Assembly (NCBI GenBank): GCA_947477885.1
Contig: CANJUD010000004.1
Span: 36,997 to 100,996 of the forward strand
Length of the DNA: 64,000 nt
DNA from: Bacteroidota bacterium
GTDB taxonomy: Bacteria; Bacteroidota; Bacteroidia; UKL13-3
Direction of reading: 5' to 3'
The position numbers and the translations under genes were made by a program. Positions within the stretch are counted from its first letter, which is position 1. The number at the start of each line of letters is the position of its first letter. The notes under the pieces are model-generated. The model was not told the origin of the DNA, did no database searches, and saw only the letters and a list, made by a program, of their open reading frames with translations. This document shows, one piece after another, positions 2,029 to 39,125 of the stretch.

Positions 2029-4461
2029 TTATTCTTCTTTATTTGCTGGACTCTCCGCAGTTGGCTCTTCCACTTTGGCTTCAGCAGTAGGAGTGGGGGC
2101 AGCAGTTTTTACTTCTTCAGTCTTTCCCGTTTTTACATTACGAAGTGTACGAAGCTGATCCATAAGTCCGCTTATTTTCTTTTGGGCATCTTTAATTTTT
2201 TCTTCTATCTGTTTGGTAAATGCACCTGAGTTTTTACTATTTGCAAAGAAACCCATATTGTTTTGCCAAGTATCAATATCATGTTTCATTAACTTGATTC
2301 TTTCACTCAAACGCTTCTCCTCACTATACAACATATCCTTGCCGTCTGTTTGCTTGGCAATAACCTCATAATGGTTGCGGTGACGTGTTACATTGTTGCT
2401 TTGGAAATCTTTGCGTATGCGCTGGTATATGGCATCCAATACCGCTTTGAAACGTTTTTGCACATCATCTTTTAGTTTGATAGGAACAAAACCATAATTG
2501 CCCCACTCGTCTTGAAGTGTTTTAGCACGTTCAATCAAATTTTCATTGCTTTCTTCTTTGGCAAGTTCTTCAAGCTGCGTTATAATTTGATTCTTCGCTT
2601 CTAAATTCTTAGTTTCATCCTGAATTTTCGATGCGAAAAATTCTTTCTTCCTTTCAAAAAATACATCACAAGCAGTACGGAAACGAACCCATACTTTCTC
2701 GCTATGTTTCTCGTGCACAGGACCCGTTTTCTTCCACTCATCTTGAAAAGCTAATAGACTTTTTGTAGCATTGCCCCAGTCTTCGCTGTTTTGCAATTCT
2801 AATGCTTTGGCACATAACTCATTTTTAATTCTGAGGTTTTCTGTACGGGCTTTTTCTATATTTTTAAAGAAGGTATTTTTGTTATCATAAAACTTATTGA
2901 TGGCTGCTTTAAAACGGTCCCAAATCTCATCACTCAGTTTATTAGATACAGGGCCAACAGCTTTCCACTCTTCAAATAATTTATTGGCATCATCTATTTT
3001 AGCTACCCATTCTTTCACAGTATTTGCTTCAAACAAACCAAGCTCGTCGGCTTTTTCGCAAAGAGCTATTTTCGCATCTAGGTTTATCTGACGCTCGCCT
3101 TCAAATTCTTTATATTTATTGGTGATGATTTCATATACTTTATCAGCCGCTTCTTTAAATCGCTCCCACATCATGTCTTTGGCTTCCATTGGCACAGGAC
3201 CGGTATTTTTCCAATCCTCCCAATACTTCTTTTGCATGATAATTGTTTTACGCAAAGAAGGTTCTTCAAGCAAAGCATCCATCTTCAAGCAAAGTTCTAT
3301 TTTTACTTCAAGGTTTTTTCTGCGGTCAAGTTCTTTTAATTCATTATTTATACCTAAATTATCATAAAACTTATCGAGGAAATAAGTATATTTATTCCAA
3401 AGCTCTTCTCTAGCTTCGTTAGGAATAGCTCTAATAGCTTTCCATTGATTTTGTAAATCTTTTATTTGTTGTAAGCTGCCACTAGAGTCTTCTTGCTCAG
3501 CAATCTCTTTTATTTGATTTAAGATAGCACGCTTCGCTTCCAGGTTCTTAAGCTTCTCTTGCTCAAGTTGCTTGCGATAAGCTTCTCTGCGGTTCGCAAA
3601 TTCTTTGTAGGCACTATTATAATCTTCTTTGGTAGTATCGCTATACTCAAAATCTTCACGAACACCACCATTCTCAATAAACACTTGCAGTGCAGCTTGA
3701 AAATCTGCATTCCAAAGTACTTCAATAATAGGACGTAGTTTTCTGAAAGTTTGTGAAGCCTCATTCAGTTCTGGCATTTTAGCTGCCTCCCAAGCCATAG
3801 CTACTAGTTCTTCTTTGCTATGCTTTTTTAAACTTGCCACCTCAGCTTCCGAAACATATTCAGTAACTTGGTCATCACTATGCTCTTCCTCGTGTGTTTC
3901 AAATAAGGGTATATCAGTAGTTGCAGTTTCTGCTTTTGCCTCGGTTGGCTCAGCTACAGGAATTTCCTCAGCTACTACCTCAGCAATTTTTTCAACCTCC
4001 GTCTCAGCCACAGGTGCTTCTATAATAGTGGTTTCTTCAACCACTGCTTCAGCTACAGGAGTTTCTACAACAGGATTCTCCTCAACTATTACTTCAGCTG
4101 CAGGATTCTCAATTTCGGGAATCTTCTCTACCTCCGTTTCAGCAATGAGTGCTTCTGTTATTTCTTCAGCAACTACCTCTTCCAAAGGAATATATTCTAT
4201 CGTATCTTCAGCTACTGTTTCATATGCAGGTGCCTCTTCAACAATTTCGTTTGTAGTAGATAATTCAGGATTTCCCAACTCAGCTTCTGCAACTTCTTCC
4301 GTTAAGGCTTGCGTGTCAACGGATTCGCTGTTTTCAATAGTTTCTGGTGTTTCGCTGTTGGTTTCTTTAGGTAGATTTTCTTGCTCGTTCATTACGTTTT
4401 TGGTTCTTGGTTCAACTGATAAGGTACCTTTTTCAGTAGGAAGGGTTGCATCTTCTTGCAT
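2029..4461 (-). CDS. DUF349 domain-containing protein with acidic E/A/V/T-rich repetitive N-terminus
   Basis: Multiple DUF349 repeats (W..K.IGPV / EWKKTGPV / WGNYGFVP). The first ~250 aa are low-complexity acidic tandem repeats. Confidence 0.8.
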   Translation of the reverse strand: MQEDATLPTEKGTLSVEPRTKNVMNEQENLPKETNSETPETIENSESVDTQALTEEVAEAELGNPELSTTNEIVEEAPAYETVAEDTIEYIPLEEVVAEEITEALIAETEVEKIPEIENPAAEVIVEENPVVETPVAEAVVEETTIIEAPVAETEVEKIAEVVAEEIPVAEPTEAKAETATTDIPLFETHEEEHSDDQVTEYVSEAEVASLKKHSKEELVAMAWEAAKMPELNEASQTFRKLRPIIEVLWNADFQAALQVFIENGGVREDFEYSDTTKEDYNSAYKEFANRREAYRKQLEQEKLKNLEAKRAILNQIKEIAEQEDSSGSLQQIKDLQNQWKAIRAIPNEAREELWNKYTYFLDKFYDNLGINNELKELDRRKNLEVKIELCLKMDALLEEPSLRKTIIMQKKYWEDWKNTGPVPMEAKDMMWERFKEAADKVYEIITNKYKEFEGERQINLDAKIALCEKADELGLFEANTVKEWVAKIDDANKLFEEWKAVGPVSNKLSDEIWDRFKAAINKFYDNKNTFFKNIEKARTENLRIKNELCAKALELQNSEDWGNATKSLLAFQDEWKKTGPVHEKHSEKVWVRFRTACDVFFERKKEFFASKIQDETKNLEAKNQIITQLEELAKEESNENLIERAKTLQDEWGNYGFVPIKLKDDVQKRFKAVLDAIYQRIRKDFQSNNVTRHRNHYEVIAKQTDGKDMLYSEEKRLSERIKLMKHDIDTWQNNMGFFANSKNSGAFTKQIEEKIKDAQKKISGLMDQLRTLRNVKTGKTEEVKTAAPTPTAEAKVEEPTAESPANKEE

Positions 4462-4580
4462 TTTTTTGAATCTTTGTTTTTAAGGTTTTGATAATCTTTC
4501 GATTAGAAATTAGATAACATGCTTTATTTTTTATGGAGGGCCTCAATTGAATTGGGTTTAACTTTGCACTCAATAAAAAA

Positions 4581-5435
4581 ATGGATGCGAAAATAGTTGA
4601 ATGTCCGCGAGATGCCATGCAAGGGCTGAAAGAATTTATTCCAACTGATGTAAAAATCAGGTATTTAAATTCTTTGCTCACTTGTGGCTTCGATACTTTA
4701 GACTTTGGAAGTTTTGTGTCTCCGAAGGCAATTCCTCAATTGGCAGATACTGCCGAAGTGCTTAGCGGACTGCAGATGACCGATACAAAATTGCTGGCTA
4801 TTATAGCAAATTTGCGTGGTGCAGAAACGGCAGTATTGTATGATGAAATAACTTATTTAGGTTTTCCTTTTTCCATCTCCGAAACTTTTCAGCAACGCAA
4901 TACCAATGCCTCGCAGGCCGATGCTTTCGAAATGGTGAAATCAATTCAAGAACTTTGTATTAAACATGATAAGATATTGGTTGTATATCTTTCTATGGGT
5001 TTTGGAAATCCTTATGGCGATGTATGGAATGTAGATATAGTAGCTGATTGGGCCAACAAAATGCAAGCCCTCGGCATTAAAATTATATCATTGGCAGATA
5101 CCGTGGGAGCAGCCCAGCACGTAAATATATCATACTTGTTTAAGAACTTAATTCCATTATATCCTGAGGTAGAATTTGGAGCACATTTTCATACCACACT
5201 CACCAACTGGCAAGATAAAGTAGATGCGGCCTGGCAAAGTGGTTGCCGCAGATTTGATGGTGCTCTTAAAGGTTACGGTGGTTGCCCTATGGCCAAGGAT
5301 GAATTGACTGGAAATCTGGCCACAGAGAACTTATTATATTATATACAAAATACGAAAATAGAAACGAATATTAATATTAATAAATTTAATGAAAGTATGA
5401 TAATGGCAGATCAGATTTTTAATCGATATCATTAA
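4581..5435 (+). CDS. Hydroxymethylglutaryl-CoA lyase-like (HMGL family)
   Basis: 284 aa. N-terminus VKIVECPRDAMQG, TIM-barrel HMGL-like blocks (GADTVGAA, FGAHFHTT, GGCPMA). Confidence 0.8.
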   Translation: MDAKIVECPRDAMQGLKEFIPTDVKIRYLNSLLTCGFDTLDFGSFVSPKAIPQLADTAEVLSGLQMTDTKLLAIIANLRGAETAVLYDEITYLGFPFSISETFQQRNTNASQADAFEMVKSIQELCIKHDKILVVYLSMGFGNPYGDVWNVDIVADWANKMQALGIKIISLADTVGAAQHVNISYLFKNLIPLYPEVEFGAHFHTTLTNWQDKVDAAWQSGCRRFDGALKGYGGCPMAKDELTGNLATENLLYYIQNTKIETNININKFNESMIMADQIFNRYH

Positions 5436-10704: not shown

Positions 10705-13314
10705 CTATTTATTACTTTCAAATGCTTGCTTAATCAAGAAACTTATATATTGTCTATGTGCTGTAGTTTCTTTGTTAACTGGCGTTGCACCCACAGCTGG
10801 TGCTGCATTCACCATGCCATTGATATTTTTCAATGATTGATATACTGCTGCTTTGGCAACAAAATCACCACTGAAACTTCCCAACATATCTATCAAACGA
10901 GTTACATAAGCTGCTTGCAAATTTTGGCGAACCGTATTCACATTTGCTCCTTGGTCATCTTTGAAAATGGCATTGGTTAATTCGCCCATCATATCTGTAA
11001 CGGTATATTTATTTCCATACTGGCGGCTATCTGTTAAGCGACGCAAAGTATTACTGCTAAGCAAATGTCCGAGAACACCTGTTTGTATATTTAATATACG
11101 TGAATGTATTTTTGGGTCTTCTGTATTTCCAAAGAAATTAAATCCCCTGCGTTGCATTTGTAAGTATGGATATAAACTTTGAGCAGCATCAAAAGCATCA
11201 GGGGCAAATATATTTTTCGCCAGTATGCTCATCGCTTTCTTTTGGTCGGTTAATGGCACTGGAGTATAGGGTTGGGTAGATCCAAGTTGCCCCATGAATC
11301 CTCGGTTCACATACACGCCACCCACATAACGGCTTACTACTGTTGCAGCACTGTTCATCTCACCAGTTAATATCAAATATCCTTGACGCAATTCTTGATA
11401 GCTTTGTGCGGGTTTATTATATTTGTCTTTCAAGCCAAGCATATAAGCATTCACCAATTTAAAACGACTAGCTGAATAACCCAAAACGTCTTTACTAATA
11501 TCATTGACATTTACTCTGGGGTCGATACCGTTAAATGAACTACGCATATCATCAGCATCATTACCAAAAATAAGCAAACTATCATTCGATTTTTCTAAAA
11601 TCTGTGTGATTCTTCTTTCTTCAGTTGAAGCATTTTCGTCGGCTGCACTATATGCATATTCTATTGCCCAATTATCATAAGGACCAGGTTTGTTGGTAAA
11701 GTACAATCCTTGCTTGGCCTTGTCAGCAGCTAGATTCACGGCTGGGTAATCCATTACAGAGGCTGTTAATCCCAATCTGTCCGTAATAGCTTTATCATTC
11801 AATTGGTCGGGCCACAGCATTTGACTAGCTTTCATATTGTGATTCAAACCCATGGTATGTCCCATTTCGTGCAATACCAAATAGTATAAACTTTGTTTTA
11901 GATATTCTTTTACATCAACCTCACTTGCACCTTGAGCTGCCAAAGCTGTGCGACCCAGTATCATATTATGCTGCATACTTTCGCCCAATTGGCAGCAGTG
12001 TTTTCCTTTCACATCAGTCTCTTCTTTTTCATTCTCTATATTTAGTCCCGATGCATTGAAAAGTTTTTCTTGTTTCAATCTGTTGGTCACAAATATATAT
12101 TCGAGCATTATATCAGCACCCATAATCTGACCAGTACGTGGGTTCACAAAACTAGGGCCATAGCCACCAAATGGGGGATTGGGAGAAGAAGTCCAACGTA
12201 ATACATTATATCTAATATCACCTGCATCCCATGCTGCATCATCGGGTTGTTCGTTTATTACAACTGCATTTTTGAAACCTGCTTTTTCAAAAGCTAAATT
12301 CCAACGCAGTCCAGCTTCTTTTATAATAGGACGGAATTCTTTGGGAGTGGAGTTTTCAATCCACCAAGTGATTGGTTCAACAGGTTCGCTGATAGCAGCT
12401 GTCGGATCTTTCTTTACTAAATCCCACCGATGTATCATATCTTTATATGGAGTAGGAGATGTAGAAGTCATATCCTCTACCTCGGTGCTGAAGTACCCTA
12501 CACGCGGGTCATCACGGCGTGGTTTAAAATTATTGGCAGGCATTTCAATCAGCGTATGTTGCAAACGCACAGTTACTGAGCGTGCATCCGCTACTTCGCT
12601 TCCACCACCATTCATGGGCATGGGATTATCATATACATAATCAACTATTACATTGGTATTATAGGGATAGTTATGAATGGAAACATATTTAGATTTGTCT
12701 TTATTCAATCCACCCAGGCTAAAAAAGAAAGCGGCAAATGGACCACCCGAAGGAGCAGGTTTTACTTGGTGAAGGGCTTCACCCATAAATATACTATTAG
12801 CATCCAATAAATATTCTTGCTTGGCAGTATCATATACAGTTACTTTTAAACTTGCCAATACCGCATCGCTCACATTTGCATCGGCCGATTTACTGATGGC
12901 ATTTTGTGGGTCGAAATAGAAATTGGTATTTTTACTGATGAATTCAATTTTATCATAATATTTGCGTAGACCGAACACACGATTATCTCTAAAATTTCCG
13001 CGATTATGACCTGTTTCCACCAATCCATTTTCAGAATAGGCAAAGTAAATATATTCTTTATCAATTTGACTTTTCTTAACGGATATCCATAAATTCCCAG
13101 TCGTGGTGTCCTGATAGAGATTGAATAGCCCTTCGAATTTTTTGCAAGGTTTTACTTTTTCTTCAAAAGCATTTTTCTTTTTTTCATCGGGTTTTGAGGG
13201 CTTTTCCTCGGTTGCGAAAGTGCTTCCAATTGAAAATGCAAAGATTAATGCGTAGGTAATATTTTTACTCATCATATTTTTTGTTTTAAGGAGTTCGTGA
13301 ATTGAAAATTTCAT
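10705..13314 (-). CDS. Secreted zinc-dependent metalloprotease (DUF5117/DUF5118-type, HEMGH)
   Basis: 869 aa, signal peptide, HExxH zinc site LVLHEMGHTMGLNHN. Architecture typical of Bacteroidetes DUF5117/5118 metalloproteases. Confidence 0.8.
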   Translation of the reverse strand: MKFSIHELLKTKNMMSKNITYALIFAFSIGSTFATEEKPSKPDEKKKNAFEEKVKPCKKFEGLFNLYQDTTTGNLWISVKKSQIDKEYIYFAYSENGLVETGHNRGNFRDNRVFGLRKYYDKIEFISKNTNFYFDPQNAISKSADANVSDAVLASLKVTVYDTAKQEYLLDANSIFMGEALHQVKPAPSGGPFAAFFFSLGGLNKDKSKYVSIHNYPYNTNVIVDYVYDNPMPMNGGGSEVADARSVTVRLQHTLIEMPANNFKPRRDDPRVGYFSTEVEDMTSTSPTPYKDMIHRWDLVKKDPTAAISEPVEPITWWIENSTPKEFRPIIKEAGLRWNLAFEKAGFKNAVVINEQPDDAAWDAGDIRYNVLRWTSSPNPPFGGYGPSFVNPRTGQIMGADIMLEYIFVTNRLKQEKLFNASGLNIENEKEETDVKGKHCCQLGESMQHNMILGRTALAAQGASEVDVKEYLKQSLYYLVLHEMGHTMGLNHNMKASQMLWPDQLNDKAITDRLGLTASVMDYPAVNLAADKAKQGLYFTNKPGPYDNWAIEYAYSAADENASTEERRITQILEKSNDSLLIFGNDADDMRSSFNGIDPRVNVNDISKDVLGYSASRFKLVNAYMLGLKDKYNKPAQSYQELRQGYLILTGEMNSAATVVSRYVGGVYVNRGFMGQLGSTQPYTPVPLTDQKKAMSILAKNIFAPDAFDAAQSLYPYLQMQRRGFNFFGNTEDPKIHSRILNIQTGVLGHLLSSNTLRRLTDSRQYGNKYTVTDMMGELTNAIFKDDQGANVNTVRQNLQAAYVTRLIDMLGSFSGDFVAKAAVYQSLKNINGMVNAAPAVGATPVNKETTAHRQYISFLIKQAFESNK

Positions 13315-34700: not shown

Positions 34701-35070
34701 TACCGCGTCATCCGATAGCTATCGGATGCGAGGAACGAAGCAATCTCATCCTAAGCAGAATATATTATATAATAGTATATAAGGGAGTTATTAAGAAATG
34801 TTAAAACTGGAAAACTATTTGGAAAGATTGTATTTATAGGATATTATTGCAAGTGTATAGGTAGTTGTTTATGAAAAGTATATAAAAGTTAGCTCCAACA
34901 TTTTTGAAAAATTGTTAACCATAATATTTCTGCAATAAACAAACTGACCAAGACAAAACACTGCCAATAATTAACGTAAGTAGCCGGCCATAATTTTAAT
35001 ATTTCACAGCGACATGGTTTGGCGTTTGCGGATTCTATTTTTGCATCGTAACAATCAAATCATTGTCAAA

Positions 35071-35772
35071 ATGAAAATTCAAAAGCATGAAACGCCACAG
35101 CAAAAAGAAAAAGAAATAGAACACCTTTCTTTTATTCAATCAAATGGTTCAGTAAGTAAATATGGACTTGAAACTTTCTTTGAGAAAACTTTCAATTGTT
35201 TAAAAGAAGAACTTCAACGATTGAGGAACACAATTTACGATTACAACCAGCATGAATACATTTTTGCCCTAAATGAAAGGGCTTGGGTAGGTGCATTTAA
35301 CAATGCTATTTTGAGAGCACTTCCCGATAGCACTGTTACACTGCAAGAGTTTGGAGTTTACGACAAAAAACATTTCATCGGCAGAGCTGATTTTCTTGTT
35401 TATTGGAAGGATAAAAATAACAAGCCGCTTTATCTTCTTTTTGAAGCCAAGCAGTATGAGGAGACAATCAAATCAGAATTGCTTGATGATGCAACCGAGT
35501 ATCTGCATACTGTAAGAATACAAGGACAAAAATATTTTGATGCAGAAGAAGAAACTGAATACTATAAAGATAAAAATGTTTTAGTTATTCCAATTGCTTT
35601 TGGTTGGATAAGAAAACCAGACTTTTTAAATGAGGCAAAAAAATATTTTGAAGGTGGAGAAAAGAAAGATAAGTCAACAGATTTTTGCTCTTTGTATTTT
35701 GAAGGTGAGCATGGTGCTTGGGTTTATGGGAAAATTTATGATGCAAGAGAATCAATTACTCTTTTAAAATAA
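35071..35772 (+). CDS. Hypothetical PD-(D/E)xK-like nuclease-fold protein
   Basis: RADFLVYW...LYLLFEAKQ fits a D-x(n)-hhh-E-x-K core. Paralog of 50749-51405 (shared W.G..N.AI, LQEF, R.DF, LFE.K, YYKD, P.I.FG, TDFC..Y.....WVYGKI blocks). Stop overlaps the WYL gene start (TAATG). Confidence 0.55.
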   Translation: MKIQKHETPQQKEKEIEHLSFIQSNGSVSKYGLETFFEKTFNCLKEELQRLRNTIYDYNQHEYIFALNERAWVGAFNNAILRALPDSTVTLQEFGVYDKKHFIGRADFLVYWKDKNNKPLYLLFEAKQYEETIKSELLDDATEYLHTVRIQGQKYFDAEEETEYYKDKNVLVIPIAFGWIRKPDFLNEAKKYFEGGEKKDKSTDFCSLYFEGEHGAWVYGKIYDARESITLLK

Positions 35773-36689
35773 TGTCTAAGCGAGGTTACGTATCAAGATA
35801 CTTGCTCATTCTGAAAAAACTGAAAGCAAAACCTTACAGTTCTTATGAGGAAATGCAAAATTATTTTGACAATCAGATTGATTACTTGCAAATGCAGGAT
35901 GATACATTGAGCATTGGTTTTTCAAAGCGAACATTTCAACGTGATATAAGGGAAATACGAAATCTATTTGGAGTGGATATAGAATATTCAAAATCCGAAA
36001 AAGGCTATTTTATTTCGCAGAGTGAGATGGAGAACATGAACTTTCAAAGAATGATTGAAACATTTGATATGTTTAACTCATTAAATTTTTCTCAGGACTC
36101 GAAGCCATTTATACATTTGGAAAAACGGAGACCCCAAGGAACAGAAAATTTATACGGACTGCTTCATGCAATCAAAAACAAATTGCAGATAAAATTTTCT
36201 TATCAGAAATTTTGGGATGAAGAATCAAGTACTCGGACAGCAGAACCTTATGCCCTAAAAGAGTTTAAGAATCGTTGGTATGTTTTAGCAAATGACATGA
36301 AGGAAGGACTAATCAAAAGTTTTGCTCTTGATCGTTTGGCAAATCTTGATATTACAAAAAAGTCATTCTTCTATCCTGAAAATTTTGATATTGAAGAAAA
36401 CTATCGCTACTGTTTTGGAATCATTAGCCCAAATGGAAAAGAACCGCAAGAAATAATTTTATCCTTTGACCCACTTCAAGGCAAATACATCAAATCATTG
36501 CCTTTGCACGATACACAAAAAGTTTTGGTTGACAACGAAGAAGAACTTCAAATAAAATTAACTTTATGTATCACCTTTGATTTTGTAATGGAACTTTTAT
36601 CATTCGGTGATCACATGAAAGTTGTTAAACCAAAATCACTGATAAAAGAAATTAAAGAAGCACATCAGAGAGCATTCAAACAATACTAA
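35772..36689 (+). CDS. WYL-domain transcriptional regulator with N-terminal HTH
   Basis: N-terminal DeoR/HTH-like segment (RTFQRDIREIRNLFG). Central WYL motif (FKNRWYVLANDMKEGLIKSFALDRLANL). Architecture of BrxR/CapW-type regulators. Confidence 0.75.
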   Translation: MSKRGYVSRYLLILKKLKAKPYSSYEEMQNYFDNQIDYLQMQDDTLSIGFSKRTFQRDIREIRNLFGVDIEYSKSEKGYFISQSEMENMNFQRMIETFDMFNSLNFSQDSKPFIHLEKRRPQGTENLYGLLHAIKNKLQIKFSYQKFWDEESSTRTAEPYALKEFKNRWYVLANDMKEGLIKSFALDRLANLDITKKSFFYPENFDIEENYRYCFGIISPNGKEPQEIILSFDPLQGKYIKSLPLHDTQKVLVDNEEELQIKLTLCITFDFVMELLSFGDHMKVVKPKSLIKEIKEAHQRAFKQY

Positions 36690-36790: not shown

Positions 36791-37402
36791 ATGAACAAAA
36801 TAATTGAGAGCCATTTTATACTTGGACAAGATAGTAAACTCACTAATCTTATTATTGAAGCTTTTGGCAGTAATTGGGATGAAAAAGATCTGGGTCAAAA
36901 TGGACATATTGTTTTTCTTGATATAGAACCAATACAGACTATTATTTCCTCTATAAGTTCAAGTTCTGAGCCTAAATTAGAAAAGCCATCCTTCTCAGAC
37001 TATTTAAAAAAGATTGATTATTCAAACTTTGATAATCTTTTGTTGCTTGTTTCTACTTATTCGTGGGGTGACTATGAGGAAATCTTGAAGAAAGTAAATA
37101 ACACATTCGGATTTGAGAATAAACATCTTGACATGGTGTTGAAGGAAACAAATGGATTGCTTATATACTCATACCAATTGGAAAACTTGTTCATTATGGC
37201 AACAGGCTCTGACATGGAACAAGCAGTTACTTTCAGAAAAGATATCAATAAGAAAAAGGCTATCACATTTGAAGAATCTAAAAAAATGAAATTATTCGGC
37301 ACCACATTGCATGCAATTATGGAGGACAGGATGCCACTAATAGGGACTCGTTATGGTAGGTATTCCGAAACATATAAATTGTATCAGTATCTGAATTTAT
37401 AG
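36791..37402 (+). CDS. Hypothetical protein (203 aa), third gene of the putative WYL operon
   Basis: ORF with a coding-like look and no recognisable motif. Convergent with the PIN gene. Confidence 0.45.
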   Translation: MNKIIESHFILGQDSKLTNLIIEAFGSNWDEKDLGQNGHIVFLDIEPIQTIISSISSSSEPKLEKPSFSDYLKKIDYSNFDNLLLLVSTYSWGDYEEILKKVNNTFGFENKHLDMVLKETNGLLIYSYQLENLFIMATGSDMEQAVTFRKDINKKKAITFEESKKMKLFGTTLHAIMEDRMPLIGTRYGRYSETYKLYQYLNL

Positions 37403-37404
37403 TT

Positions 37405-37914
37405 TTATTTTGCTAGCTTTTTTAATTTCCTAATCAACTTTTCAATCTCATCCAATGGTAAGCGATCATTCACAGTTTTAAGTATCTCTAAAAATCTAAT
37501 ACCTACCTCGGGTGAAATTATTTTTTGTTCTACTATAATTTGTATTACCCACAAACTCCCATGTACTATAACACCTTGTTCAAGTGCTTCATTTCGTAAC
37601 TTTGCATCACCTGTAAGCAGCGGACAGTTCAATTGCTTTGCTTTCCATAATACTGTTTTATCAATCAGCGTTTTGAAAAACCTCGTCGTTTTTAAATTTT
37701 GTACCTCATCAATTTCCTGTTCAGTTAGTTCAAATACTATAAGTTTTTGCGAGCGAATAAACATTTCAATTTGCTCTTTCTGTTCCGATTCTAATATTTC
37801 GCCTTTTACAAAATCTGTTGTGCATATTTCAAAATCCAACGCAAAGAACTCAGGCAATGCCTGAATCTTTATGATATCAAAAAACACACTCGAATCTGTA
37901 ATTACTAGTTTCAT
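37405..37914 (-). CDS. PIN-like domain protein (DUF4411-type), partner of ImmA/IrrE peptidase
   Basis: MKLVITDSSVFFDII, a PIN-like acidic N-terminus. The internal ATG at 37914-37912 overlaps the upstream gene's TGA as ATGA. Confidence 0.6.
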   Translation of the reverse strand: MKLVITDSSVFFDIIKIQALPEFFALDFEICTTDFVKGEILESEQKEQIEMFIRSQKLIVFELTEQEIDEVQNLKTTRFFKTLIDKTVLWKAKQLNCPLLTGDAKLRNEALEQGVIVHGSLWVIQIIVEQKIISPEVGIRFLEILKTVNDRLPLDEIEKLIRKLKKLAK

Positions 37915-38981
37915 ACTATCTGGTGTAATTGCTCCCGAAACTTCCATGCTGATACGCCGAGATAATAAGCCGCTTCATTTACTGTTAAAATTTCTTTTGA
38001 TAAGCCGAGATACACCAAACGCTCCATTCGCACAGGTTTTTCTTTACTCATATATCGTCCCGGTTCATTCAAACTCAACTTTCTTTCTTTATAGCCTATA
38101 TTAAATCTTCTATATATATAATCTGTAATAATTTTTAAATGCAATGCTCTCGAAAATATAGCAGTGAAAGAAATTCCCCACCGTTCTTTAATCAATACCA
38201 ATTCGTTTTGATAGAAATGAAAACGGTCTTTGCTTAATTCTTTCAAAGCCATATCAGCAGGATATAGAACAGCACTGGCAAAAGCATGACACAATTTTTC
38301 GGTTTCTTTATCAGTTAATTTATCCGAAAAATTTAGTGCGTGGTGAGCCAATTCATGCATTGCGGTAAATCGTTTTCTAACCACATCTTCTCCAGGCTTT
38401 TTACTTTTTCTTAGAACAATAATTTTATGATTGTCAACATCTGCTTTCATTCCATCAAAGCCATCGGGAGCATCTAATTCAATGACCTTGTAACCTTTGT
38501 CTTCCAGCATTTCAACCACATCGGCTATTGGATCATATCCCAGTTTCCATTTGTTTCTTAGCTCTTTTGCAGCGGCTTCTGCATCATCTGCATTATATAT
38601 AACTTTATCATAACTGAAATATTCTGATTTTTCTTGAGGGCTTATCAGATGCTCTAATTCCAAATAGCTTTCGCAACTTTCTTTTGCTTTTTCCTCAATA
38701 GCAATTTGCTCTGTTTTTGAAATTTTAGTAATATATTTTCGGTAGTCCACATTTGTGAGTTCCACATTTACTGCAGGAACTGAATAAAAATAATCAGCAG
38801 GAATACTCAAAGCATTTGCTAAGGCAAGTAATACCTTACTATCGGGTTTCATTTTACCTTGTTCGTATTTATGCAATGCCTGACGAGAAACAACTTTTTC
38901 AAGTTTGTTTTCTAAGTCCTGCAAGGACATACCTGCCATCTTCCGGGCCGACACCAGTTTATTTCCAAATACATTTTCCAT
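37911..38981 (-). CDS. Fused XRE-family HTH / ImmA-IrrE (COG2856) metallopeptidase
   Basis: N-terminal HTH_XRE (LVSARKMAGMSLQDLENKL...SRQALHKYEQG). Zn-peptidase HExxH (AMHELAHHALNF) in a DUF955/ImmA-like domain. Confidence 0.8.
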   Translation of the reverse strand: MENVFGNKLVSARKMAGMSLQDLENKLEKVVSRQALHKYEQGKMKPDSKVLLALANALSIPADYFYSVPAVNVELTNVDYRKYITKISKTEQIAIEEKAKESCESYLELEHLISPQEKSEYFSYDKVIYNADDAEAAAKELRNKWKLGYDPIADVVEMLEDKGYKVIELDAPDGFDGMKADVDNHKIIVLRKSKKPGEDVVRKRFTAMHELAHHALNFSDKLTDKETEKLCHAFASAVLYPADMALKELSKDRFHFYQNELVLIKERWGISFTAIFSRALHLKIITDYIYRRFNIGYKERKLSLNEPGRYMSKEKPVRMERLVYLGLSKEILTVNEAAYYLGVSAWKFREQLHQIV

Positions 38982-39008
38982 TGTTTTATTTATATGAGCA
39001 CTTTAATT

Positions 39009-39044
39009 GTTGACAAAAGTACCATATTTTTTAGAATTGTCAAC
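39009..39044. promoter_or_regulatory. Inverted repeat GTTGACAA-N20-TTGTCAAC in the promoter region of the HTH/ImmA gene (candidate operator)
   Basis: Perfect 8-bp inverted repeat seen directly ~30-60 bp upstream of the minus-strand start at 38981. A GTCAAC half-site recurs at ~39085. Confidence 0.4.
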
Positions 39045-39125
39045 CAATAAATTTTAACAAATTTTAAACAGTAAGCAAAAGGAATGGTCAACTACTTGCT
39101 TCATTCTAAGTAGATATTGACTCTA

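Follow-up and report, generated by a model that had tools for sequence, protein, structure and literature searches.

A predicted toxin-antitoxin-type cassette of a fused HTH-peptidase regulator and a PIN-fold protein downstream of a conserved operator candidate

Here we characterize two overlapping genes on the minus strand of a Bacteroidota chromosome, which are positioned within a 64,000-nucleotide stretch of contig CANJUD010000004.1 (the whole analysed stretch, subsequently designated the window). The first gene codes for a regulator in which a helix-turn-helix (HTH) domain of the XRE type is fused to a zinc-dependent peptidase domain of the M78 (ImmA/IrrE) family, the second codes for a protein with a predicted PIN fold, and a perfect inverted repeat precedes both. 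The pair is probably a self-contained, autoregulated two-gene cassette of toxin-antitoxin type and of the COG2856/RosmerTA kind. It sits in the chromosome of a probable member of the Chitinophagaceae, in a variable stretch between ClpB and a 525-amino-acid (aa) membrane protein, and comprises the following features, given in window positions.

37911..38981, minus strand: regulator/antitoxin gene, 356 aa, stop codon included, from the list of open reading frames (ORFs)
37405..37914, minus strand: PIN-domain gene, 169 aa, stop codon included; putative toxin/effector, COG2405/DUF3368-like and PDC-S70-like
37911..37914, minus strand: ATGA overlap of regulator stop and toxin start (junction ...ATA GTA TGA, with ATG at 37914-37912)
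38778..38969, minus strand: XRE-type HTH, residues 5-68 of the regulator (Pfam HTH_3 and HTH_19; helices of the model)
38157..38504, minus strand: M78 (ImmA/IrrE) Zn-peptidase domain, residues 160-275 (Pfam Peptidase_M78)
38343-38357, minus strand: HExxH motif H209-E210-x-x-H213 within FTAMHELAHH (read from the sequence)
38028..38084, minus strand: linker, residues 300-318, (N)EPGRxxSKEKPVR, predicted to be disordered, conserved in sequence
37914..38027, minus strand: three-helix HTH-like C-terminal domain, residues 319-356, candidate toxin-specific module
39009..39044, no strand assigned: operator candidate, perfect inverted repeat GTTGACAA-N20-TTGTCAAC (read from the sequence)
39014..39021, minus strand: predicted sigma-A -7 box TAnnTTTG (TACTTTTG)
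39041..39043, minus strand: predicted -33 element (TTG), contained in the left operator arm

The regulator gene and its PIN-fold partner

A preliminary description of the locus had proposed that the larger protein fuses an XRE-type HTH to an ImmA/IrrE-like Zn-peptidase. Indeed, Pfam HTH_3 (E 8.8e-10, residues 12-65) and Peptidase_M78 (E 3.9e-9, residues 160-275) both matched above their curated cut-offs, and HTH_19 matched as well. The AlphaFold model (mean predicted local distance difference test score, pLDDT, of 80) comprises four parts, i.e. the N-terminal HTH, a long helix (residues 89-113), the peptidase core, and a low-confidence stretch (300-317) followed by three short helices (319-355). 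In the HTH the helices encompass residues 4-15, 20-26, 33-40 and 48-57, and the putative recognition helix lies at approximately residues 30-40 (VVSRQALHKYE). Both the HTH and the HExxH site had been called intact, which we confirm for the peptidase site: the sequence AMHELAHH is present, and H209, E210, H213 and E228, the last of which is the likely third zinc ligand, are invariant in 28 regulator homologues of 63-94% identity. The site is also invariant in distant plasmid copies and across homologues of 60-100% identity. Judged from these residues, an intact active site that is predicted to be catalytically competent is strongly supported.

In Foldseek comparisons, the peptidase part of the model retrieved IrrE/PprI (IrrE 3dti, E 5e-4) and the Mycobacterium tuberculosis transcriptional-regulator entries 6cyy and 6cz6, while the HTH part superposes on C.BclI, ImmR, DdrO and CapH. 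Among the defence-system profiles of PADLOC, 14 RmrA models (antitoxin of RosmerTA) match the regulator, the best being PDLC03944 with E 2.5e-43 over residues 3-338, and partial matches were obtained with capP (E 7.4e-13) and capH (E 2.2e-5). PHROG 2439, annotated as 'transcriptional regulator', matches with E 1.2e-56. Against the NCBIfam model for the spr1629 repressor/antitoxin (NF052239) the regulator scored 108.3 bits, the equivalog cut-off being 335; by profile score it is related to this family but not an equivalog.

For the second protein, the AlphaFold model reached a pLDDT of 94.5, and all 21 Foldseek matches in the PDB with E of at most 1e-3 are PIN-fold structures. Among them are Nob1, SSO1118 (2mdt, which represents the COG2405 structure according to Matelska et al. 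2017, PMC5499597), VapC4, HARP and VapC toxins at the top, as well as PAE2754 and protein-only RNase P. A search of the PDB with the toxin sequence returned no match at E of up to 10, and therefore the fold comparison alone is informative with respect to this database. Of the four acidic PIN residues, D7, E39 and D103 do not vary, while D85 is conserved to at least 90%. Thus, the PIN-like identity assigned beforehand is borne out by fold and by conserved residues alike.

The same did not apply to the more specific label of a DUF4411-type protein. DUF4411 (PF14367) gave no match at E of up to 10 with the window protein, with 33 homologues or with three plasmid homologues. Pfam therefore rules out a DUF4411-type toxin: none of the 33 family members matches, as opposed to 27 of 33 with PIN and 23 of 33 with DUF3368; PIN_6 matches 20 of 33. 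The window protein itself scored 15.9 bits with Pfam PIN (E 0.021), which is under the 23.6-bit cut-off, and a plasmid homologue from Sulfuricurvum (L085) passes at 25.0 bits. A precomputed annotation assigns PF11848 (DUF3368/COG2405; PF11848.14) to each of the 120 listed homologues as well as to the window protein, an unmarked family standing for E of at most 1e-5 by the legend; with the local PF11848.13 the window protein had no match and 23 of the 33 homologues matched below threshold (best E 0.0016, cut-off 27.3 bits). Aligned by hhalign to a canonical DUF3368 protein, the toxin family gave E 3.8e-4 over 129 columns, and the C-terminal extension (residues ~117-169) is helical and of DUF3368 type. 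The PDC-S70 models of PADLOC match 28 of the 33 homologues (best E 3.3e-9) and the window protein weakly (E 0.0016), while no RmrT model of PADLOC matched the window toxin or any of the 33 homologues at E of up to 1. From the predicted fold and the profile matches, we assign the second protein to the PIN fold, regard it as probably COG2405/DUF3368-like and group it with PDC-S70. Hence, of the known COG2856 association that had been invoked for the locus, the pairing with a PIN protein stands and DUF4411 does not; the better-fitting partner is a COG2405-like PIN, a pairing that is also described in PMC5499597.

The two genes overlap in an ATGA at 37914-37911, which was read directly and which is kept in 68 of the 73 related loci with a readable junction (one GTGA variant was also found). 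The overlap implies translational coupling of regulator and toxin genes. For the PIN gene a longer ORF exists (37405..37947, minus strand, 180 aa), within which the ATG at 37914 yields the 169-aa protein. Because nearly all homologous toxins are 166 aa long and begin with the overlapping ATG, the start at 37914 is favoured over 37947, as anticipated in the preliminary description. At the other end, 2 nucleotides (nt) separate the stop codon of the toxin gene from that of a convergent plus-strand gene (36791-37402), and therefore co-transcription of downstream genes is not expected in the window. It is strongly supported that one promoter would drive the regulator gene and, via the ATGA overlap, the PIN gene. 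Within the toxin coding region, ~50 nt past the start, we observed a 9-bp stem-loop (GATTCAGGCATTGCCTGAGTT; 37847-37867, minus strand), which a terminator scan flagged on both strands.

Some neighbours in the same variable stretch deserve mention. The convergent gene at 36791-37402 (plus strand) encodes a free-standing 203-aa protein that matches the DNA polymerase III alpha finger domain (Pfam DNA_pol3_finger, E 1.1e-7) as well as several NCBIfam DnaE models; it was found in this genomic context only. Two plus-strand genes with a 1-base overlap occupy 35014-36689. The first encodes a 252-aa protein whose sole family match is a weak one to a TnsA-like endonuclease N-terminal domain (E 0.049), and the second a 305-aa regulator with WYL and WCX domains (PADLOC WYL models, E 1.6e-30); the two may form a small WYL-controlled defence unit.

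A conserved operator candidate over the predicted promoter

The inverted repeat is composed of the arms GTTGACAA (minus strand; 39037-39044) and TTGTCAAC (39009-39016), with a spacer of 20 nt between them. The repeat stops 27 nt short of the regulator ATG and hence occupies positions 28-63 bp upstream; the preliminary description had correctly reported a perfect repeat upstream of the peptidase gene, but at 30-60 bp. The pattern GTTGACAA-N20-TTGTCAAC matches a single time in the 64-kb window and had no match in 100 dinucleotide-preserving shuffles. To compare the repeat across relatives, 76 non-duplicate related loci were anchored on the regulator start. Of these loci, 47 have a perfect 8-N20-8 repeat, and at least 7 of 8 arm positions match in 65 of the 76. 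The arms are rich in information content and the spacer, save for a TA dinucleotide, is poor in it, and the consensus reads G-T-T-(G/T/A)-A-C-A-A N20 inverted. Where the arms deviate, they do so in a compensatory manner: GGCGACAA/TTGTCGCC occurs in five loci, GTTTACAA/TTGTAAAC in one and GGTGACAT/TTGTCACC in one. All five GGCGAC/GTCGCC loci (GGCGACAA/TTGTCGCC), and no others, encode the helix variant KYVTRQTL, whereas the helix elsewhere reads (V/I/L)V(S/T)(R/K)Q(A/S)L. This covariation of operator and helix points to a direct readout by this HTH.

In Bacteroidota, the sigma-A -7 box has the sequence TAnnTTTG and lies at positions -12 to -5 (PMC9723704). Such a box (TACTTTTG) is predicted at 39014..39021, where it is found in exact register in 63 of 65 related loci, and the right operator arm begins with the three bases that end this box. 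Located 19 nt upstream of this box and inside the left arm is a TTG (39041..39043), which we take to be the -33 element, assuming the usual Bacteroidota consensus and spacing. With the -33 element in the left arm and the -7 box overlapping the right arm, the arms cover both promoter boxes. Transcription is predicted to begin at approximately 39009, so that the transcript would not include the left arm. Immediately preceding this arm, an A/T-rich stretch (39045-39075, …GTTGAAAAnTTTTTTAAAC…-like) is partly conserved in the close loci L004-L022; it may serve as an UP-like element or provide an additional contact.

The arrangement is also seen beyond the Bacteroidota set, as a GT(A/T)(A/T)ACAA-N20/21-inverted copy is present upstream of homologues in three other lineages. 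The operators read GTAAACAA-N20-TTGTTTAC in Runella, GTTTACAA-N20-TTGTAAAC in Agrobacterium and GTTTACAA-N21-(A)TGTAAAC, plus a second site, in Sulfuricurvum; in Synechococcus we found GTTTACAA-N32-TTGTAAAC. Since it is seen in other phyla at 33-35% protein identity, the 8-N20-8 design is, on this sequence comparison, older than the phylum.

Further candidates at or around the repeat were rejected. A second good copy of the operator is absent from the 64-kb window, and the match with 3 mismatches at 11692, which would have suggested a wider regulon, is intragenic and no better than expected by chance. A third half-site (GTTGACCA, 39085-39092) is not conserved in related loci and is attributed to chance. 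An RNA role of the repeat is unlikely: Rfam returned no match, the fold had z = -1.36 with the arms unpaired in the minimum-free-energy structure, and the left arm is upstream of the predicted transcription start. Finally, a sigma-70 scan flagged TTGACA-16-TAGAAT on the plus strand (39010-39037), which we regard as a by-product of the palindrome since this consensus is not of the Bacteroidota type.

Centre to centre the half-sites are 28 bp apart, corresponding to ~2.7 helical turns. With conserved arms, a drifting spacer, paired arm variants and an overlap with the promoter boxes, the operator-like reading of the repeat proposed previously gains support, and the repeat is a real candidate for an autoregulatory operator.

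Recurrence of the pair and a candidate C-terminal module of the regulator

Related loci were collected by a degenerate-pattern scan covering one genome per species, which yielded 282 relatives; the best 80, with 60-94% regulator identity, were kept. These 80 loci span Chitinophagaceae, Saprospiraceae, Flavobacterium, Bacteroidales, Prolixibacteraceae and others, the closest one (94% regulator identity) being from a Chitinophagaceae metagenome-assembled genome (MAG). In nearly all of the best 80 of the 282 relatives a PIN homologue directly follows the regulator, so the pair recurs widely in COG2856 neighbourhoods. The flanking genes vary between loci, which indicates that the pair moves as a unit. 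A census of gene integrity counted 63 intact pairs, about 10 loci in which the regulator is intact and the PIN gene degraded or missing, and 3 loci in which both are degraded; an intact PIN gene beside a broken regulator was not encountered (0 in the census). Such an asymmetry of decay is what a PIN protein that does harm in the absence of its partner would be expected to leave.

Distant relatives were found by tblastn in 180 plasmid records, at ~33-35% regulator identity and in most cases along the entire length. On plasmids of Runella, Sulfuricurvum and Agrobacterium, the next gene encodes a toxin homologue of 163-169 aa (E 5e-25, 2e-21 and 2e-14, respectively). The copy on Runella pRUNSL02 (L084, 278-3053) is divergent from an operon of a cyclic-oligonucleotide-based anti-phage signalling system (CBASS), and on Sulfuricurvum pSULKU03 (L085, 1507-4023) a 4-nt overlap joins the PIN gene to the beginning of the gene for a type I restriction R subunit. 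A nucleotidyltransferase is also among the neighbours of these plasmid copies. In Synechococcus, the gene next to the regulator encodes a transposase, and a type I restriction-modification gene is located further downstream. On a viral contig of IMG/VR, the pair adjoins a large type IIG-like restriction-modification gene. Altogether, homologues thus stand beside CBASS, type I restriction-modification genes, a type IIG-like restriction-modification gene and an E1/multiubiquitin-like pair. The Runella and Sulfuricurvum arrangements hint that some copies may be co-transcribed with neighbouring defence genes or may regulate them.

Several single loci showed additional features. A gene for a 75-77-aa DUF2188 protein, which is not present in the window, follows the toxin gene in about nine loci (including L002, L003, L004, L008, L014, L016, L024 and L026). 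In L004 (5581-7736) it is followed by a small Zn-ribbon-like ORF and by genes for a 162-aa protein and a 390-aa ThiF/E1-like protein; assigned by eye, these genes look like a multiubiquitin/E1-type ubiquitin-like defence system. In L005 (5068-6323) an inserted ORF interrupts the toxin gene after residue 55, and in L041 (4001-6567) the regulator is truncated at 331 aa, the toxin is missing and an ORF for a group II intron-type reverse transcriptase, recognized by eye, lies just downstream. In L037, a Sphingobacteriia MAG, a canonical pair of UPF0175 (78 aa, Pfam E 2.8e-20) and DUF3368 PIN (153 aa) is encoded at 2948-3623, ~400 bp ahead of a cassette copy (4001-5357) whose PIN gene has lost its N-terminal half.

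The segment between peptidase core and C-terminus of the regulator combines poor model confidence with strong conservation: pLDDT is below 50 at residues 300-317, yet E306, P307, G308, E314 and P316 are invariant in the 28 homologues. Behind this linker, the C-terminal domain folds in the model into helices 319-328, 334-341 and 345-355 (pLDDT 77-84). Apart from the families of HTH_3 (XRE) and M78 type, its best Pfam match is UPF0175, which was obtained below threshold in 13 of the 28 homologues (best E 0.0029). Comparison by hhalign with a genuine UPF0175 family, seeded from the canonical UPF0175-DUF3368 pair in L037, gave E 1.3e-4 and a probability of 54% across 26 columns over the HTH core. 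A stand-alone UPF0175 relative was not found when a profile of the C-terminal domain was run against 1.84 billion representatives; among the 36 matches, those inspected are C-termini or fragments of HTH-M78 proteins. Pfam did not reinforce the UPF0175 signal in distant members either, one of which matched the Fis-type HTH_8 instead, and a free-standing UPF0175 gene is not present at the cassette. Matches of the C-terminal profile in the PDB, i.e. designed toroidal repeat proteins (dTor, through summed short repeats) and a lipase at E 0.76, were discarded as spurious.

Loci whose HTH and M78 domains are ~80-87% identical to those of the window fall into two classes. Members of the first class (A) have the C-terminus of the window type and toxins 75-88% identical to the window toxin, whereas members of the second class (B) have a different C-terminus and toxins of 60-63% identity. 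In a sliding-window comparison, class B resembles class A at residues 1-300 and switches at approximately residue 300-315, i.e. within the linker; from the linker through the toxin it resembles a more distant clade. These classes suggest that C-terminal domain and toxin were inherited as one unit, and hence that this domain may be the toxin-specific part of the regulator.

Proposed function and relation to known systems

The observed gene anatomy and domain content, the conserved pairing of both genes, and the conservation and promoter position of the operator candidate fit the toxin-antitoxin-type cassette that we favour. In this cassette, each of the two arms would be bound by one HTH domain, the pair of domains belonging either to a regulator dimer or to a complex bridged by the toxin; both promoter boxes would thereby be blocked and the operon repressed. 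The PIN protein, when free, would act as a metal-dependent RNase that arrests growth, and the regulator would neutralise it by direct binding, most likely via the C-terminal domain. Autorepression by the HTH, a toxic PIN RNase and its neutralisation by the regulator are fairly supported as steps of this scheme. The peptidase would provide the trigger: a stress or phage signal could activate the HTH-bearing protein to cleave itself, either in cis or in trans, which would lift repression and free the toxin, leading to growth arrest or abortive infection. This last step is drawn by analogy to ImmA/ImmR, IrrE/DdrO and CapP/CapH, and a peptidase trigger has been proposed for Rosmer antitoxins by Ernits et al. 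2023.

A more far-reaching version of this scheme, which we put forward as a speculation that is rather unlikely to hold in full, would make Rosmer-type antitoxins three-module proteins, built of an HTH and M78 chassis, a conserved flexible linker and a swappable HTH-like adaptor. Here, the adaptor would be a built-in antitoxin domain of UPF0175 type for a COG2405 PIN protein, adaptor and toxin would be exchanged as a unit, and the peptidase would cut the invariant EPG...EKPxR linker, detaching the adaptor that holds the toxin.

Several points weigh against the toxin-antitoxin-type reading or parts of it. Toxicity, neutralisation, DNA binding, proteolysis and phage defence are all properties that we infer for this locus. 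The 28-bp spacing is unusual for a simple or compact HTH dimer and therefore calls for an extended dimer or a toxin-bridged complex, and the covariation of operator and helix probably reflects a single evolutionary event. The kinship of the C-terminal domain with UPF0175 is sub-threshold and unproven, as the profile search gave nothing but C-termini of HTH-M78 proteins. Its exchange together with the toxin likely represents one recombination event and could alternatively be due to the adjacency of the regulator 3' end and the toxin gene. Moreover, mirror-tree correlations of distance matrices with the toxin do not single out the C-terminal domain (0.72, as compared to 0.79 for segment 71-150 and 0.74 for M78). 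Assembly error in MAGs may inflate the apparent decay of genes. Among the 2.9 million viral contigs of IMG/VR just 2 distant relatives were detected, and therefore the subfamily is not typically phage-borne. Finally, in the absence of a PADLOC RmrT match, standard tools would not call the locus RosmerTA.

One alternative regards the pair as a plain addiction or stress toxin-antitoxin system, i.e. a selfish element stabilising the variable region or serving a general-stress response, in which the peptidase only tunes antitoxin turnover and phage defence plays no role. Movement of the pair alone among unrelated neighbourhoods would suit such an element, and its decay pattern is a generic toxin-antitoxin signature. 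Besides, the readout for the pneumococcal Rosmer-family RipAB is competence induction and not phage defence, and PDC-S70 has the status of a predicted defence candidate. However, homologues repeatedly adjoin CBASS, restriction-modification and other defence genes, the assayed RosmerTA systems defend against phages, and the peptidase site, invariant in homologues of 60-100% identity and in plasmid copies, argues for a selected sensing function. We consider this explanation unlikely, albeit the strongest of the competitors.

Less probable still is a switch of the ImmR/ImmA, DdrO/IrrE or CapH/CapP type condensed into one protein, the main task of which would be to switch on the PIN nuclease, or defence genes next to it, in response to damage or infection, with control of the PIN protein by expression alone and without protein neutralisation. 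Repression alone hardly explains why the census has no intact PIN gene without an intact regulator, and the apparent co-inheritance of C-terminal domain and toxin also speaks against a switch. In addition, a single operator is present in 64 kb, and the window toxin, which ends 2 nt from the convergent gene, has nothing co-transcribed downstream. On the other hand, a switch would accord with the capP and capH matches of the regulator, with the operator sitting on the promoter and with the arrangement on two plasmids, where the Runella pair is divergent from CBASS and the Sulfuricurvum PIN gene overlaps the type I restriction subunit gene.

Very improbable, finally, is a toxic Zn-peptidase domain with the HTH as its antitoxin and the PIN protein as accessory: a table in Makarova et al. 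2009 (PMC2701414) has the entry 'COG2856 / Xre: T - predicted Zn-dependent protease', and a Brucella Zn-metalloproteinase/HTH-Xre pair has been discussed as toxin-antitoxin (PMC10538038), but RmrA-type proteins are antitoxins, an rmrA deletion was unobtainable, RipB and Kita RmrA neutralise their toxins, and loci that have lost the PIN gene but retain the regulator persist, contrary to the prediction for a toxic peptidase.

The architecture of the favoured toxin-antitoxin-type cassette is already in the literature, and the locus is a well-supported ordinary example that leaves its class unchanged. Makarova et al. 2009 (PMC2701414) reported 42-60 COG2856-PIN neighbourhoods and many operons that combine a COG2856-Xre fusion with a PIN or RelE toxin, for which a three-component toxin-antitoxin system was proposed. 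Matelska et al. 2017 (PMC5499597) found COG2405, DUF4411, PIN_14, PIN_20 and PIN_26 downstream of HTH-DUF955 fusions, including a Geobacillus example of HTH-DUF955 with COG2405. Both papers describe the exact architecture, in which a PIN-like gene immediately follows the gene of an HTH-DUF955 fusion, but neither the operator and promoter anatomy nor the toxin-specific part of the fusion. What is added here is the anatomy of the operator, the modular C-terminus and a large Bacteroidota subfamily with plasmid relatives in other phyla.

The name RosmerTA was given by Millman et al. 2022 to peptidase-antitoxin systems, for which phage defence was shown. Thus, RosmerTA is experimentally established both as toxin-antitoxin and as anti-phage system, and later work added a phage-encoded member and S. 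pneumoniae RipAB. Like the window pair, these systems form a two-gene operon of an antitoxin with N-terminal XRE HTH and ImmA-like Zn-peptidase and a small, variable partner toxin. In contrast, the described Rosmer toxins, a membrane-depolarising protein and a sliding-clamp-targeting protein, are not PIN nucleases, and the PIN partner here is without RmrT match. By anatomy and predicted function we deal with a Rosmer-like system with a PIN toxin, which the PADLOC toxin models do not call a member. The operator defined over both promoter boxes, the invariant disordered linker and the C-terminal domain travelling with the toxin offer experimental handles, which make two questions testable, namely by which of its parts a Rosmer antitoxin binds the toxin and what is cut by the peptidase.

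ImmR/ImmA of ICEBs1, DdrO/IrrE of Deinococcus and CapH/CapP of CBASS likewise combine an XRE repressor with an M78 metalloprotease, and the protease cleaves the repressor on signal. However, these are two separate proteins and act on other genes (for excision, DNA repair and CBASS, respectively), whereas HTH and peptidase are fused here and the only target found in the window is the own promoter. Unlike IrrE, the window regulator also lacks a GAF-like C-terminal domain. With VapBC the locus shares a PIN toxin with four acidic residues, an antitoxin gene that comes first and overlaps the toxin gene, and an inverted repeat over the promoter; it differs in an approximately 4-fold larger antitoxin with an enzyme domain, in the DUF3368-type extension of the toxin and in half-sites that are 28 bp apart. 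The antitoxin family UPF0175 (COG2886) has been reported exclusively with COG2405 PIN genes (Matelska et al. 2017, PMC5499597). In these UPF0175-COG2405/DUF3368 pairs the toxin belongs in or next to the same PIN subfamily, but the antitoxin is free-standing, while the regulator described here has a sub-threshold resemblance at its C-terminus. PDC-S70, a single-gene PIN nuclease classified as 'phage defence candidate', was found by guilt-by-embedding in defence systems. Most toxin homologues match PDC-S70, and the Sulfuricurvum pair is directly upstream of a type I restriction gene. In contrast to PDC-S70, which is defined as a single gene, the PIN gene is always paired with the regulator here, and the locus thereby links this PADLOC PIN candidate to a regulator partner.

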